Origin: Promethearchaeota archaeon
Lineage (GTDB): Archaea; Asgardarchaeota; Lokiarchaeia; Sigyniarchaeales; SOKP01
Direction of reading: 5' to 3'
Length of the DNA stretch: 64,000 nt
Assembly: GCA_016926735.1 (NCBI GenBank)
Contig: JAFGOA010000223.1
Span: forward strand, 1 to 64,000
The notes under the pieces were generated by a model. It searched no databases and was not told the DNA's origin. It worked only from the letters and a program-made list of their open reading frames with translations. Shown here in pieces: positions 39,988-45,996 of the stretch. A program made the position numbers and the translations under genes. How positions within the stretch are numbered: position 1 is the first letter of the stretch; every line of letters starts with the position of its first letter.

Positions 39988-40413
39988 ATGAGCGAACAAT
40001 GGAAACATGCTGATTTAGCCTCTCTTATTGGAAAATTAGCATGGATTATTGGTGTTATTTGTGGTGTGATTCAATTAATTATTGGAATTGCATATGGATC
40101 TTTCACCTTATTAGGTACTCTCTATATTGTTCCAATAAATATATTTTGGGCGATTGGCGGTGTGATTATTATAATAATATCCCTTTTAATTATTAAACCC
40201 CAATTTTCAGATAAATGTGCAAATAAGGAATGGGACGCACTATATGATTGGGCATTAGATCTTGGAGGAACTAAAATATGGTGGATGTTAATTTGGATTG
40301 TTGTATTTATTATTTTTGGCTGGGGATATAGTGCTGGTCCAATTATAATAGTCTTTCTTCTTCTTTTCCTTGCTGGTCCAGAGAATACTAAATGGGACAA
40401 AAATAAAAAATAA
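39988..40413 (+). CDS. Small membrane protein
   Basis: About four hydrophobic segments, Trp/Gly-rich. Confidence 0.75.
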   Translation: MSEQWKHADLASLIGKLAWIIGVICGVIQLIIGIAYGSFTLLGTLYIVPINIFWAIGGVIIIIISLLIIKPQFSDKCANKEWDALYDWALDLGGTKIWWMLIWIVVFIIFGWGYSAGPIIIVFLLLFLAGPENTKWDKNKK

Positions 40414-40558
40414 TTATTTTTTTTTCTTTTTCTGCTAATCTTGAAAATATGTTAAAAATAAAAATTATTTTATTAAATTATCTAAAAGTATTACCTATGA
40501 TTAAAAAAAAGCACGTATAATCATTAAAAATTAAAAAAGAAATTAAAAAAAAGAGATG

Positions 40559-40689
40559 TTATAGTCCTTTAGGGCCATTTTCATATATTTTATATGCTTC
40601 ATCAACAGATGTATTATCATGAACAATTGCTCTTACAGCTTTGATCATACCAATAGGACTATCACTTTGAAAAATATTTCTTTCCATAT
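40559..40689 (-). pseudogene. Displaced duplicate of the aldolase last exon ([42 protein letters not shown])
   Basis: 131 nt colinear with 42039..42169; 20 nt differences, 37/42 aa identical. Confidence 0.9.
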
Positions 40690-40705
40690 ATTCAATTACG
40701 ATATT

Positions 40706-41854
40706 TTATTTTAATTCTTCAAATTTCTTTCCTTTAAGTTGCTTATGCCAATAATGTGGTTTTGGTTTTTTAATATTCCATTTTAAACATATTTCATTAA
40801 CAATCCTTGGATATACATTATATATTTCACATATTTTTTTAATTGGCATTTTCCAAACTAATTTTATCAGTTCATCCTTTTGAATGGAGTCTTCAAAAAT
40901 ATTTTTAGATGCAACTCTAAAATATTTCCTCTTTCGCGATAAACTATCTGGAAAATTATCTAACATTTCATTAAATAGTTTTCCGCCCAAACTAAAATAA
41001 TAATTCCCTTTACCATCGGGATTGATTTTATGAGGAATATTAAATCTTTTTTTTATTTCTTCTAAAATTAATTTACTACCAATATGAAATTGATTAGTCC
41101 CTTCTTTTCCATCACCATCAAAAAAACCTAGTAAAAATGCCAGATCTAATTCTCTATTATCTAAATTAGGAAATCTTGTTCTTTTTTTACTACTTTTTAC
41201 ATAACCTAATGTGTATAGATCACTTTGAACATTAGAATTTTTAAAAGTAATCCTTACATATGTTCTTAGTTCATTTTTAGTCATTTTTGTTCGATATTTC
41301 TTGTATTTAGGATTTAAACCTATCGCTTTACAATACCTATCTATTAAAATTTCATCATTTTTGCTTAATTCAAGTTTTAATTCTCCTCTTTCTCCTAAAT
41401 AAACTTCAGCCCACAATATTCCAAGCCAATAAGCTTTATTTTTTGAATTAATTTTTTTAAAGTAATTTATATTTAAATCAAGATGATAGTTTAAAACTTT
41501 TAGACCTTTTTTTCTAGATATTGGTAATTCTTCATTTGATTCTTGGTATTTCTTAATAAATTTTAATGTATTCTTCCCACGTAAGCCAAAATAAGCTTTA
41601 ATATTATTACTCCATTCGTTTAATTCATCTAAAGCAATTTTAAATTGAGGATTCACTTTAATATTTCTTATAATTCTTTTTATACGTCTTTCATAATCAC
41701 ATAATATAAGACTTAATTTTTTATAAGATAAACTTCCATTATGAATTATTTTAACTTTAAAACCATTAATAAATAAGGTGGATGATACAATCTTAAAAAT
41801 CTCGTTTCTTAAATCTTTTATTAATTCTGATGCAGAATAAGTAAGTCTTCTCAT
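40706..41854 (-). CDS. Free-standing double-motif LAGLIDADG homing endonuclease
   Basis: KAYWLGILWAEV and LAFLLGFFDGDG motifs; basic protein with an HTH-like C-terminus; no intein splicing motifs. Confidence 0.85.
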   Translation of the reverse strand: MRRLTYSASELIKDLRNEIFKIVSSTLFINGFKVKIIHNGSLSYKKLSLILCDYERRIKRIIRNIKVNPQFKIALDELNEWSNNIKAYFGLRGKNTLKFIKKYQESNEELPISRKKGLKVLNYHLDLNINYFKKINSKNKAYWLGILWAEVYLGERGELKLELSKNDEILIDRYCKAIGLNPKYKKYRTKMTKNELRTYVRITFKNSNVQSDLYTLGYVKSSKKRTRFPNLDNRELDLAFLLGFFDGDGKEGTNQFHIGSKLILEEIKKRFNIPHKINPDGKGNYYFSLGGKLFNEMLDNFPDSLSRKRKYFRVASKNIFEDSIQKDELIKLVWKMPIKKICEIYNVYPRIVNEICLKWNIKKPKPHYWHKQLKGKKFEELK

Positions 41855-42038
41855 TCCTCAATTATTTTGTTGTGTTTATTTCTGGTCTTTTTTCTATTTT
41901 TATCTAATTGAATTACTTCTCTAGTTTAAAGAATCTTTATTGATTTATATGGTTTTTATTAATATATATTTTAATAGAGTCTGCAGATTTTTTTAAATAA
42001 AATATTTATATTATAACAAGAAAAAAAAAATAAAAAAA

Positions 42039-42883
42039 TTAAAGTCCTTTTGGACCGTTTTCATATATGCTATATGCTTCATCAATAGACTTATTCTCAT
42101 GAACTATAGCTCTTACTGCTTTAATCATGCCAATAGGGCTGTCACTTTGGAATATATTTCTTCCCATATTTGCGCCTATAATTATAAAAAATAGTTATAG
42201 TCTACGCCGACAGCTCCTTTATCAATAGCATTCCTTGCCATAATTAAAGCATCACGCTCCTCAATCTTCTTTCCACCAGCTATTACAACCGGTACTGGAG
42301 CGATAGAAGTGACTTCGTCGAAGTTCTCACAATAATATGTTTTTACAAAAGTGGCACCTATTTCTGCTGCCATTCTACTTGCCATACCCAAATATCTTGC
42401 ATCTCTAACCATTTCCCGTCCAACTGCTGTTACTGCTAAGACTGGAATACCATAATCTTGTCCCCAATTTACAATCTTAGTTAAATTCATTAAAGATTGT
42501 TTTTCAAATTCACCACCTACAAAGATGGAACAGGTAATTGCTGAAACATTTAATCTTATCGCATCTTCAATTGTAACATTTATTTCTTCATTTGAAAGTT
42601 CTTTTAACATACTTGCTCCGGCAGATACTCTTAGAACGATAGGTACATCAAAATCCGGTGAAACACAATTTCGAAGCATACCTCGTGTTAACATTAAAGC
42701 ATCAGCATATTCAAAAAGGGGTTCTAACTTCTTAAAAGATTTTAACATTCCTGGGATATTGCCAAAATATTCATGAGTATGTATTAATTATACATATTTT
42801 CCATGATCGACAGCAAGCATGACGCAATGCCCAGATTTAGGTTTAATTATTCGGGATAATCTATTTTGCATTCCCCAATCCAT
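42039..42883 (-). CDS. lsrF: LsrF-like / DhnA-type class I aldolase, join(42883..42800,42769..42202,42169..42039), 260 aa after splicing
   Basis: [21 protein letters not shown] (spliced), [42 protein letters not shown] (spliced); exon lengths 84+568+131=783 nt. Confidence 0.9.
42170..42201 (-). other. 32-nt BHB mRNA intron 2 of the aldolase
   Basis: Central GCGT/GCGC, bulges AGA and AAA, inner stem CTATAACTAT/ATAATTATAG; cleavage after the second bulge nt gives GTA GAT ATG GGA (VDMG). Confidence 0.88.
42770..42799 (-). other. 30-nt BHB mRNA intron 1 of the aldolase
   Basis: Central CATG/CATG, bulges GAA and AAT, inner stem TATGTAT/ATACATA, outer TTGCTG..GAT/ATT.TGGCAA; in-frame TAA inside; splicing gives CAT GGA TAT TTT (HGYF). 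Confidence 0.9.
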
Positions 42884-43008
42884 AGTTTTATCACTTATTT
42901 CTTATAATAATTTTATTTTGATATCGTAATAAGTAATGAAATTATTATAAATTTTAAGTTTAATAGCTAAAATAAGATATTTTAAAAATTTGTATTAAAT
43001 ATTGTTTT

Positions 43009-43272
43009 TTATTTCAATTCTGTTGTTTTGGTTGCCAAAATAAGATCTATTTTTTCATATCCTCTAATTATACCCTTTTGATCGATAAATACAACGAATT
43101 GATGATCAGAACAGACAATCCCTGCAGGAACATGTATTTTAACACAGCCAGATTCTTTTTTTGAAAAAATTTCTGTTGGAATTTTAACTATTTTATCAAT
43201 TCCGCAAGTTGGACAAGATATATTGAACTCTCTCATGATTGATTCTAATTTCTTATAATTAATATTTAACAT
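43009..43272 (-). CDS. Small Zn-ribbon-like protein
   Basis: CPTC ... CSDH motifs, FIDQKGIIRGYE. Confidence 0.7.
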   Translation of the reverse strand: MLNINYKKLESIMREFNISCPTCGIDKIVKIPTEIFSKKESGCVKIHVPAGIVCSDHQFVVFIDQKGIIRGYEKIDLILATKTTELK

Positions 43273-43362
43273 TTTTTCTTACTTAGATATATTAAATACT
43301 GAGAAGTCAAATAAAAATGTTCACTTTTCCTATGAAATAAAGGAAAAAAAATTAAAAAAAAA

Positions 43363-45996
43363 TTATTCTCTTTTTAGAATTTGTGAATTTTGAGTTGTGT
43401 ATACAAACAATATAATTAGTATCATTGGTATAATCCCAATAAAAATGATACTATATATTCCTTCTAAAAGGGTACTATCAAAAACTATTGGTATAAATAG
43501 AGTACCGAAAACATTGAAACAATAGTGAATAATAATACAAGGGATCAAGCTTCTTGTCTTAAAATAGGTATAAGATAGGGTAATACCCATAAATGAAGCA
43601 TATATTATTTGTTCAACTGTTGATAAAGGAGATTCACCAATAAGTGTTAGAAAATTGATTAGATGAGATAATCCAAATAGGAGTCCACACATTATAATGG
43701 TATTAATAGTATTATATTTTTCTTTAAATATTGATGTATTTATCCCTCGGAATGCTATCTCTTCCCAAATAGCTGGAATTAACATATATAGGAAAATAAA
43801 AGCTCCAAGTCCAAAATAGACCGTATCTAAAATATGGAAAATCCTATCAAAACTAAATGTATAGTTACCAAATATTAAACTTCCCATATATAATGAGAAT
43901 ACAATGATTAAAAAGGATATGATTCCAATTAAAATATTTTTTATATAGTTTTGTTTGTTAGTAATTTTGATATCCTTTAAATATTGGTTTAATTTTTTCG
44001 ATCCATATGGAAGTGACAACCATTTAGGAACTATTATAATAAAAATTAATGCTAAAACGCTAAATTCTGTAATTGGACCAACTATTCTCCTTATATTATT
44101 AAAACCTATTGGATCTATTATTGGATTTATGAATAATGATATTGTTAAATAGATTAAATTCAATACAATAAAGGGTAAACACCAATATAAAAGCAAAACA
44201 GCAATAGCTCCAAAAATAGGATTTTTTCTCAATGATCCTCCTGTTATATATGATTTATATCCTTTAAAAGAAGGAAACATCTTATCGAATGCAACAAATA
44301 ACACACATAAAATTATTCCACCAATAAGTAACATAGCAGATGCTAAGAACCAAACTTCCATATATATTGAAGCTAAAACCATTATTATCGTAAAATTCAA
44401 GAATACAAGTCCTAAATTCATAAGACCAATTAGAAGCCATTTTCTTATCTTCTTTTCTTTATAGATTTCTTCTGTAATATATTTATATTTCATTTTGCCA
44501 AAAAGCATTATTTTCATCATAAATGCGATAAAAAGAAATCCTAAGGATATAGGCAATGCACATAATCCTACTATCACAACCCAAAAGCTTTGTATGATTA
44601 TTGAAGCGAATATAGTAGACACAATAAATGAAATTGATTGTATTATGATCATTAGTATTAATTTTGCTTTTGCTTGATCTCTTGGAAGAATTGGTAAGGA
44701 AGAGGTAATTGCAAATCCTGATTCTTCCATATTCATCAATCCCATCACAAGCATAAGTGGATTCATAGTACTTATTATAAGTAAACTAACCATTAAAAAT
44801 GATAATAGTTGTATATTAAGATCTGATACTTCTGTTAATCCTGAAGAGAATGAAATGATCATAATAATGGTCATGATCATTGGCATGATTAATAACATAG
44901 CTGATTGAGGATCTCTTGCAGCTGTTGTCAAATCTTTTTTAATATATGCTTTTATTGGACCATATTTTGCTACCTCAATCTTTATTTCTTCAATATTTAG
45001 ATCTTCGATTTTTCTTTTATATTTCTTTTCTTTTCGCCCTCCAATAACAGCTGATAATGATTTTAATGCTTTTCTACTCATAAGATATGTTATTCCTAAA
45101 AATAATAGAAATCCAATAGTAGAAGTCGCCCATAATGATAATGATGTATTTGTTGGAGATATAAATAATGATATGAAATAAATTGGCGCGAAAGGATATG
45201 GAATTAAACTCAATATAAGGTTCCAAATATTTGTATATGGAGATAACGAAAAATAAGCAAGAGTACCTTCTAATGTAAAAAATACTAATTGTAATGTAAT
45301 ATTCATTCCAATAGAAAGACCAATAATCACACTAAATACTAAAATTTTCATTCTTGTAGATTTTTTTGAAGTGGTTTCAGGATTGAATATTACTCTGCTT
45401 ACTCTTTCTCCAATGAAAATTAAGAAACATAAACAAAAAATGGCATTTGGAATTGAAATTAAGAAACTTAAAAATGTTAATACTAAATTATGGGTAAATA
45501 TAAACATCATTATTGGTATAGCTAAGCATAATGAAATTAATTGGAGATCTATACTCCTAAATAAAGTCATGAAAGCATATTTTCTCAATTTTGGTTTTGA
45601 TATTGGCAATGTTCTTAACCAATAGAAAGATTCACCCGACATATATGCTCCCATTGTATATAATCCAAATAAAACTAGATATGATAAATAGGATGTCATT
45701 AGTATAGAAAAAATTATTCCATAAGTGATTACTGTTATTTCCATATTACTATTGGGAACCAATAAATCTAAAACATTAGGACCACTTACAAGATATATTA
45801 ATGGTAATAAAACTATCATAAAAGAACTAATTATTTTAAGGAGCACTACCATATTACCTATATATTTCTTATTTTTCTCACATTTTTCCAAAAAACTGGC
45901 TTGTCTTGAACCTGCTTGTTTCATTTGGGCTTCATAAAAAACCTCGTGAGAAATAAATTTCGCCATAGAATAATATTCTATAAATTTGTTTTTCAT
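43363..45996 (-). CDS. ABC exporter permease-like protein fused to a C-terminal CPBP protease domain
   Basis: Polytopic; LRTLPIS and KKDL...RDP permease motifs; C-terminal WEEIAFRG, FGLSH, HYCFN. Confidence 0.78.
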   Translation of the reverse strand: MKNKFIEYYSMAKFISHEVFYEAQMKQAGSRQASFLEKCEKNKKYIGNMVVLLKIISSFMIVLLPLIYLVSGPNVLDLLVPNSNMEITVITYGIIFSILMTSYLSYLVLFGLYTMGAYMSGESFYWLRTLPISKPKLRKYAFMTLFRSIDLQLISLCLAIPIMMFIFTHNLVLTFLSFLISIPNAIFCLCFLIFIGERVSRVIFNPETTSKKSTRMKILVFSVIIGLSIGMNITLQLVFFTLEGTLAYFSLSPYTNIWNLILSLIPYPFAPIYFISLFISPTNTSLSLWATSTIGFLLFLGITYLMSRKALKSLSAVIGGRKEKKYKRKIEDLNIEEIKIEVAKYGPIKAYIKKDLTTAARDPQSAMLLIMPMIMTIIMIISFSSGLTEVSDLNIQLLSFLMVSLLIISTMNPLMLVMGLMNMEESGFAITSSLPILPRDQAKAKLILMIIIQSISFIVSTIFASIIIQSFWVVIVGLCALPISLGFLFIAFMMKIMLFGKMKYKYITEEIYKEKKIRKWLLIGLMNLGLVFLNFTIIMVLASIYMEVWFLASAMLLIGGIILCVLFVAFDKMFPSFKGYKSYITGGSLRKNPIFGAIAVLLLYWCLPFIVLNLIYLTISLFINPIIDPIGFNNIRRIVGPITEFSVLALIFIIIVPKWLSLPYGSKKLNQYLKDIKITNKQNYIKNILIGIISFLIIVFSLYMGSLIFGNYTFSFDRIFHILDTVYFGLGAFIFLYMLIPAIWEEIAFRGINTSIFKEKYNTINTIIMCGLLFGLSHLINFLTLIGESPLSTVEQIIYASFMGITLSYTYFKTRSLIPCIIIHYCFNVFGTLFIPIVFDSTLLEGIYSIIFIGIIPMILIILFVYTTQNSQILKRE

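Follow-up and report, generated by a model that had tools for sequence, protein, structure and literature searches.

Organization of the aldolase locus

The window analyzed here, a 64,000-nucleotide (nt) stretch of contig JAFGOA010000223.1 from a Promethearchaeota archaeon, has a G+C content of about 25% and belongs to a 3.88 Mb genome of 238 contigs that is rated 99% complete. On its minus strand, from 42883 to 42039, the window carries a gene for an LsrF/DhnA-type aldolase, the sole LsrF-type copy in the genome. The unspliced reading of this gene is broken twice, by an in-frame TAA after AVDHG and by a break of frame after GAVGV, and at each break lies a short insert, here called intron 1 (30 nt) and intron 2 (32 nt). 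Sequence and allele comparisons indicate that intron 2 is in all likelihood a spliced mini-intron of the bulge-helix-bulge (BHB) type in the aldolase pre-mRNA. Further downstream, a free-standing gene for a LAGLIDADG endonuclease is followed by another copy of exon 3 and by a gene that marks the original end of the locus (Table 1).

Table 1. Features of the aldolase locus, in window coordinates.
Feature	Position	Strand	Basis or remark
Exon 1 (MDWGMQ...AVDHG)	42800..42883	-	open reading frame (ORF) and translation; aligned from LsrF residue 34 on
Intron 1 (predicted), 30 nt	42770..42799	-	allele comparison, stem covariation
Exon 2 (YFGNIPG...GAVGV and first base of Asp codon)	42202..42769	-	translation, LsrF alignment
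5′ strand of central helix (GCGU), exonic	42204..42207	-	pairs with 42172-42175
Intron 2 (predicted), 32 nt	42170..42201	-	fold, allele comparison; single copy in genome
Exon 3 in use, copy A ((D)MGRNIFQ...GPKGL and stop)	42039..42169	-	NF006081 continuation
AT-rich spacer, exon 3 to endonuclease gene	41855..42038	-	
Free-standing two-motif LAGLIDADG endonuclease gene, 382 amino acids (aa)	40706..41854	-	motifs and modelled fold
Displaced native exon 3, copy B	40559..40689	-	85% identity to copy A, native context
Native downstream neighbour, 141-aa membrane protein	39988..40413	+	marks original locus end

The interrupted gene can be aligned with E. coli LsrF along its entire length, apart from nine extra residues at the first break, and the Schiff-base lysine lies in exon 2, where FVKTYY of the aldolase aligns to IIKTYY of LsrF. 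Exons 1 and 2 alone score 307.7 bits against the NCBIfam model NF006081 (LsrF thiolase equivalog), versus a cut-off of 297. Upstream of intron 2, the frame terminates as GAVGV(D)YNYFL and a stop, and the next frame opens with MGRNIFQ. The upstream part matches NF006081 up to profile position 250 and the 42-codon downstream ORF resumes at position 251; because the two matches abut, no residue is lost or duplicated at the intron 2 site. The predicted spliced aldolase has 84 + 568 + 131 nt, that is, 260 codons and a stop.

Structure and predicted excision of intron 2

Intron 2, with the sequence ACTATAACTATTTTTTATAATTATAGGCGCAA, lies between ..GGCGTAG and ATATGGG.. and comprises the last base of one bulge, a hairpin, the GCGC strand of a helix and two bases of a second bulge. 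The minus-strand RNA reads G-GCGU-AGA, next a hairpin of 10 bp, with a single mismatch and the loop UUUUU, and then GCGC-AAA-UAUGGG. A 4-bp central helix (GCGU/GCGC) therefore carries 3-nt stretches, AGA and AAA, on opposite strands, and this structure is the minimum-free-energy fold and also the unaided RNAalifold consensus. If each 3-nt stretch is cut behind its second base, 32 nt drop out and the flanks join as GTAG^ATATGG (^ marks a splice junction), which reads V-D-M-G and, at the level of the sequence, restores GVDMGRN. The joined sequence is the one found in all 72 intron-less orthologues. The original prediction had described a frameshifting 32-nt insert at 42170-42201 with a GCGT/GCGC helix and AGA/AAA bulges, and the fold, the RNAalifold consensus and the exact profile fit confirm that description.

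In the proposed mechanism, the pre-mRNA would fold into an HBh′ (bulge-helix-loop) motif in which the exonic GCGU pairs with the GCGC of the insert, an (αβ)2 splicing endonuclease (EndA) would make its cuts behind the second base of either bulge, and joining of the exons by an RNA ligase would restore ..GAVGVDMGRNIFQ.. in the mRNA. Two splicing events, one at each intron, would then yield the 260-aa aldolase, and the expected junctions of the spliced mRNA are GGCGTAG^ATATGGG and GATCATGGA^TATTTTGG.

A multi-copy repeat resembling a miniature inverted-repeat transposable element was considered as an origin of the insert and rejected, as the 32-nt sequence is found once in the genome when up to 3 mismatches are allowed. 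A search of window positions 40000-43500 against Rfam gave no family match at E values up to 1, and DNA contigs in Logan offered no usable bridge across the insert.

Conservation of intron 2 across orthologues

Eighty orthologous loci with 82-91% protein identity were fetched, all from Promethearchaeota (Loki-type Asgard) assemblies, giving 81 alleles together with the window. The intron 2 site is empty in 72 of them, which read GTNG^AYATGGG with nothing between, and is occupied by a homologous insert in the other nine, either in a 32-nt form (the window, L004, L010, L017, L018, L038 and L057) or in a 30-nt form (L009 and L022). A kinship-based search added the carriers G012 and G022, and G101 is a carrier by matching length, so that intron 2 occurs at the identical site in 11 sequenced alleles and, by length, in G101. 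Surveying its presence and absence over orthologues, as the original prediction had proposed, shows that intron 2 is patchy across genera, as mobile insertions are, and also within them: in one genus G000 and G007 have it and G006 does not, and in another G022 has it and G010 and G029 do not. That the insert is an assembly or sequencing artefact of a metagenome-assembled genome, as a 238-contig assembly might lead one to suspect, has a negligible probability, since diverged homologous inserts sit at the same site in 10 other sequenced assemblies with different isolate names and accession series.

The pairing within the insert and across its 5′ junction is conserved, with a 4-bp helix, a 3-nt bulge and a hairpin of 9-10 bp retained in the inserts. 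Over the 11 sequenced alleles, pair cells are standard in 93.5% of cases, versus 27-44% when the partners are slid by 1-3 columns; six pairs have changed on both sides, and none of 500 shuffles attains the observed covariation score. In particular, the 4-bp helix is paired in all 11 alleles, with compensatory changes from CG to UA or AU (GCGU/GCGC, GUGU/ACAC, GAGU/GCUU, GCGU/ACGU, GUGU/GCAU and GCGU/ACGC). To its second pair, an exonic Gly codon contributes a synonymous third position (C, U or A) that covaries with an intron base (G, A or U). Behind the insert, exon 3 is open, conserved, in frame and ended by the same stop in 11/11 carriers. The 32-nt insert shifts the frame and the 30-nt insert brings an in-frame TAA, and the intactness of exon 3 despite the frameshift or stop implies that the insert must be removed before translation.

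These data bear on whether the gene is dead, with the insert an unremoved scar left by the arrival of the mobile cassette described below and the aldolase a pseudogene with two lesions. Such an account would explain two disruptions in one gene and an insert at the edge of a cassette. It is nevertheless highly improbable: the exons are otherwise intact, with about 90% protein identity to intron-less orthologues; in 11 alleles, exon 3 has kept an open and conserved frame past the frameshift; the pairing of the insert is kept by compensatory changes, which are not expected of a scar; a cassette is missing from the DNA examined for six of the intron alleles; and the genome has no other LsrF-type copy.

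Beyond the intron itself, all 11 carriers share the tract AUGGGAAG-AAUAU after the junction (exon 3, 42148-42163, minus strand), at wobble positions where intron-less alleles vary; this tract could be a constraint or a co-conversion tract. A 6-bp exon-3 hairpin (GGAAGA/UCUUCC) is possible in several carriers, shows no compensatory change and is present in intron-less alleles too.

Other probable mini-introns of the same aldolase

The 30-nt insert at the first break had been taken to complete a three-exon aldolase gene, and this holds up: it has the same geometry as intron 2 and covarying stems. Intron 1 contains an in-frame TAA, and its excision would restore DHG^YFG. Its plan is CAUG-GA^A, a 9-bp hairpin and CAUG-AA^U, with bulges GAA and AAU. 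It is present in the window, L003, L004, L006, L007 and L036, with stems that covary across these six alleles, and is absent from 5 other alleles aligned there. The two introns are independently distributed, both being present only in the window and L004. Further, at AGG^KK the congener L004 (G007) carries yet another insert, 36 nt long (L004 3478-3513), which the window allele lacks. Its plan is AGGU-AA^U, hairpin, GCCU-AA^A, and the aldolase of this congener would need three splicing events. A single cut rule accounts for the three inserts (30, 32 and 36 nt), which differ in sequence and all lie in conserved motifs; the two window inserts lie at GVD^MGRN and DHG^YFG, and the original prediction had placed both in conserved motifs.

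As a separate observation, a DNA contig from another sediment sample (run X2) spans intron 1 without gaps (window 42639-42861), with three base changes in or beside it, and its coverage of intron 1 indicates that a related strain elsewhere also carries this intron.

The common architecture also allows translational explanations to be weighed. Ribosomes might hop over 32 nt or shift frame on an unprocessed RNA. In the bypass of phage T4 gene 60, the take-off region is followed by a hairpin and, close by, a stop codon, and the aldolase has both of these features. Here, however, the take-off codon would be GAC and there is no GAY at the landing site; the conserved 4-bp helix flanked by 3-nt bulges is the signature of a splicing endonuclease, and three inserts of different lengths follow one cut rule. 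We regard recoding of this kind as extremely unlikely.

Alternatively, the gene might be split into a polypeptide of about 230 aa, with GVDYNYFL at its end, and a peptide of 42 aa that starts at the ATG of MGRN, the two assembling without splicing. Exon 3 does open with an ATG, and its conserved open frame would fit separate translation as well. The Met, however, belongs to a DMGRN motif that is conserved in intron-less alleles also, no Shine-Dalgarno-like sequence precedes the ATG, and the covarying helix between exon and insert and the fixed 3-nt bulges would go unexplained. Moreover, the inserts at DHG^YFG and AGG^KK, of the same architecture, are not followed by a start codon (YFGNVPGTLKC in L006; KKTPEKE in L004). 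A split gene is a very unlikely explanation.

Splicing machinery and assessment of the intron

The window genome encodes two EndA paralogues. The alpha paralogue keeps the Tyr/His/Lys residues and is best aligned to the catalytic subunit of Aeropyrum pernix, including a G-PL---KPR loop, and the beta paralogue has no catalytic residues. The splicing endonuclease is thus of the (αβ)2 type, with a crenarchaeal-type loop. An (αβ)2 EndA with an L1 loop has been described for Asgard archaea; (αβ)2 and ε2 enzymes cleave non-canonical introns, and loop inserts permit a broad substrate specificity (PMC5829648). Most Asgard genomes are reported to have two EndA paralogues and very intron-rich tRNA genes (preprint 10.64898/2026.10.13.758758).

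Some results weigh against a BHB-type intron or leave it without support. There is no convincing outer helix closing the 3′ bulge, where a G-U pair is followed by mismatches, as judged by eye and by RNAalifold; for this reason the motif is best classed as a relaxed HBh′ and not as a strict hBHBh′. Cleavage of such relaxed motifs is reported for the endonuclease types of broad specificity (PMC5829648). The folding energy of the single sequence is no better than that of shuffles (z = -0.26), a comparison that is uninformative for a short AU-rich stretch. Metatranscriptome contigs (Logan, two runs of the source study) contain no aldolase match and so are uninformative on expression. Finally, the ligase RtcB (PF01139) was not found in the 238-contig assembly with the Pfam model and a congener protein as queries; it is present in 3/3 congeners searched, and its absence is probably an assembly gap. 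Overall, the exact fit, the conservation of the site, the covariation, the architecture shared by the inserts and the presence of EndA make intron 2 very probably a BHB-type mRNA intron.

An endonuclease cassette behind intron 2

A genome search with the aldolase DNA found the second copy of exon 3, copy B, whose similarity to copy A begins at ATATGG, precisely at the 3′ splice junction. Copy B reads MERNIFQ, with the Gly of GRN, invariant in all other alleles, now changed to Glu. The gene beyond copy B has 78% identity to the gene directly after exon 3 in the congener L004, and its place beside this orthologous neighbour identifies copy B as the native gene end. To judge by this context, the native exon 3 is displaced by a 1.5-kb block (42201..40690) made up of intron 2, a replacement exon 3, the spacer and the nuclease gene. 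The original prediction had taken the insertions as homing-derived, and this inference is strengthened by the LAGLIDADG gene just downstream and the displaced exon 3 beyond it.

The ORF at 41854..40706 has two LAGLIDADG motifs, YWLGILWAEVY (WLGILWAEV, with Glu) and LLGFFDGDG (with Asp), and an acidic residue is present at both LAGLIDADG positions in 5/5 orthologues. Its match to PF14528 is weak, at 16.4 bits below a cut-off of 22.5, as are those of 4/5 orthologues, and a profile search of PDB sequences with the nuclease returned nothing relevant. With 5 sequences, the full-length nuclease is poorly predicted (predicted local distance difference test, pLDDT, 58), and a model of residues 110-382 built with 12 homologues reaches a pLDDT of 88 and a predicted template modelling score of 0.79. 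The best 50 Foldseek matches listed from the PDB have the LAGLIDADG fold, at probabilities of 0.98-1.00; nearly all are homing or intein endonucleases, and I-AniI, I-SceI, I-Tsp061I, I-DmoI and PI-PfuI are among them.

The nuclease and intron 2 occur together. Orthologues of the nuclease (52-65% identity) are found in only 5/121 genomes sampled from the family, over four genera; with L057, the nuclease genomes are six, namely the window, G012, L038 (= G120), L022 (probably G082), L057 and G101. All six orthologous nucleases belong to aldolase loci bearing intron 2, although in G101 the aldolase and the nuclease lie on different contigs, and the nuclease motif is found in 0/72 intron-less aldolase loci. 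The nuclease gene is on the same strand as the aldolase in the window, G012, L038 and L022 and on the opposite strand in L057. The nuclease gene is followed by exon-3 remnants in the window, G012, L038, L022 and G101, in the last case 2.5 kb beyond it. They start 0 nt past the junction in the window, about 12 nt in G012, about 43 nt in G101 and about 60-70 nt in L022 and L038, and none reaches upstream of the junction. That remnants start at or downstream of the junction and never upstream is an indirect hint that the nuclease may cut at the intron site.

Taken with the displaced gene end, this pairing fits collaborative homing or homing with gene-end replacement by analogy with known systems, and we give somewhat better than even credence to the idea that intron 2 was mobilized together with the endonuclease cassette, as its leading edge. 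In such a scheme, the nuclease would recognize the conserved GVDMGRN-coding DNA of empty alleles and cut at or near the intron insertion site, and repair from a carrier allele would introduce the intron along with exon 3 and the nuclease gene, leaving the old exon 3 downstream. The 32-bp insert would split the nuclease site and make carriers immune; this protective role of the intron is a hypothesis. Restriction of the nuclease to intron-bearing alleles is what would be expected if the intron interrupts the nuclease target and protects its carrier.

The homing scheme faces evidence to the contrary as well. Three remnants begin well inside exon 3, and 6/11 sequenced intron alleles (L009, L010, L018, G022, L004 and L017) have no nuclease gene in the downstream DNA examined, the contigs of L004 and L017 ending within about 0.8 kb and 0.4 kb. 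In the sister alleles L009 and L010, intron 2 is accompanied by neither nuclease gene nor remnant, a state that deletion of the nuclease gene through recombination of the repeated gene ends would be expected to produce. Because of the relatedness of the genomes, the co-occurrence counts overstate independence. Further, a second gene-end-replacement cassette, at an SNF2 gene of the same genome, has no intron, which means that this nuclease family can replace gene ends where no intron is present. The nuclease there is a paralogue of 415 aa and 40% identity (L086 1256-4162, G000 contig C95), situated between the end of the SNF2-family helicase gene and a displaced copy of its last ~75 codons (from RAYRIGQT).

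By hand count, the window intron 2 is identical to that of L018 at 28/32 positions, to that of G012 at about 26/32 and to that of the congener L004 at 23/32. Being closer to another genus than to a congener is a weak hint of horizontal arrival. The exon-3 copies are all about 80-90% alike, and hand counts on them single out no donor of the cassette.

The nuclease orthologues vary in length and surroundings. In G101 (contig C32; L136, L143), the orthologue is an ORF of 613 aa, much extended at the N terminus. A gene for an SMC/OLD-like ATPase separates it from the exon-3 remnant, and just upstream of the nuclease ORF is a gene for a secreted protein; the inserted block in G101 may carry cargo genes. 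The orthologue in L022 (1963-3693) has a lysine-rich N-terminal extension of about 190 residues with KKRTFxPSL repeats, which is missing in the window copy.

Relation to known systems

The nearest precedent for the intron is the BHB intron carried by the cbf5 pre-mRNA of Crenarchaeota (Watanabe 2002; Yoshinari 2006; Yokobori 2009, PMC2738675), as cited in PMC5829648. Both are short, ORF-less BHB-type introns in a protein gene, in hosts with a hetero-oligomeric EndA, and both are patchy among relatives; splicing has been shown experimentally for cbf5 and is predicted for the aldolase. Unlike cbf5, the host gene here is a metabolic aldolase and the phylum is Asgard (Loki-type), and there are two introns in one gene (three in the congener), at catalytic motifs, one of them linked to a homing cassette. 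In the literature found, a protein-spliced intron in archaeal mRNA is cited only for cbf5 of Crenarchaeota, and no publication found links Asgard mRNA introns with LAGLIDADG genes. What is new at the window locus is that intron 2 apparently heads a 1.5-kb cassette with a replacement exon 3 and a LAGLIDADG gene.

Collaborative homing has been described for cyanophage S-PM2: its psbA gene carries a group I intron that has no ORF, and the free-standing F-CphI gene lies next to it (Zeng, Bonocora and Shub 2009, as summarized in PMC6083498). A further phage case is mobE/I-TevIII (PMC2790892). As that summary presents it, the psbA system shares with the aldolase locus a nuclease-less intron next to a free-standing homing endonuclease gene and a nuclease found only beside intron-bearing alleles. 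It differs, in the same description, in that the psbA intron is a self-splicing group I ribozyme, whereas the aldolase intron would be spliced by proteins; F-CphI is Endo VII-like, whereas the nuclease here is of the LAGLIDADG type in a cellular archaeal host, with a duplicated gene end and a cleavage specificity that is predicted.

Homing with gene-end replacement is known from the WHO elements at yeast FBA1 (Coughlan et al. 2020, PMC7282813), in which a LAGLIDADG-type element likewise sits in the 3′ part of an aldolase gene, brings a new 3′ end and leaves the old end downstream. Unlike the WHO elements, the cassette here is archaeal and does not encode an intein-zinc-finger fusion; successive remnants in a cluster were not seen, and in the window the replacement end starts with a mini-intron. 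The archaeal rRNA and tRNA BHB introns that encode I-DmoI and I-Tsp061I also bring together a BHB intron and a LAGLIDADG nuclease in an archaeon, and the modelled fold of the nuclease matches these systems (PDB 1b24 and 2dch among the fold matches). There, however, the nuclease gene lies inside a long stable-RNA intron, whereas here it lies outside a 32-nt mRNA intron, one exon apart. By analogy, the proposed scheme would combine the collaborative homing of phages with gene-end replacement of the WHO type.

Implications

One Asgard metabolic gene has two such introns, and a congener three; they lie in catalytic motifs and, as the allele comparisons show, are maintained. Interrupted protein genes would thus be tolerated by the archaeal relatives of eukaryotes and processed, as we infer, by the tRNA-splicing machinery. 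Genes of this kind are called truncated or split ORFs in annotation, which distorts the enzyme inventories of Asgard archaea.

The link to a homing cassette suggests a concrete, testable route by which mini-introns could be gained and spread between genomes; a comparable route joining intron and nuclease is so far known only from phages, for their self-splicing group I introns. We give an even chance to the broader proposition that mini-introns of Loki-type Asgard archaea enter protein genes as the immunity element of free-standing LAGLIDADG cassettes and become orphan introns after nuclease loss. If true, this would amount to a general and ongoing gain of mRNA introns in the closest archaeal relatives of eukaryotes.

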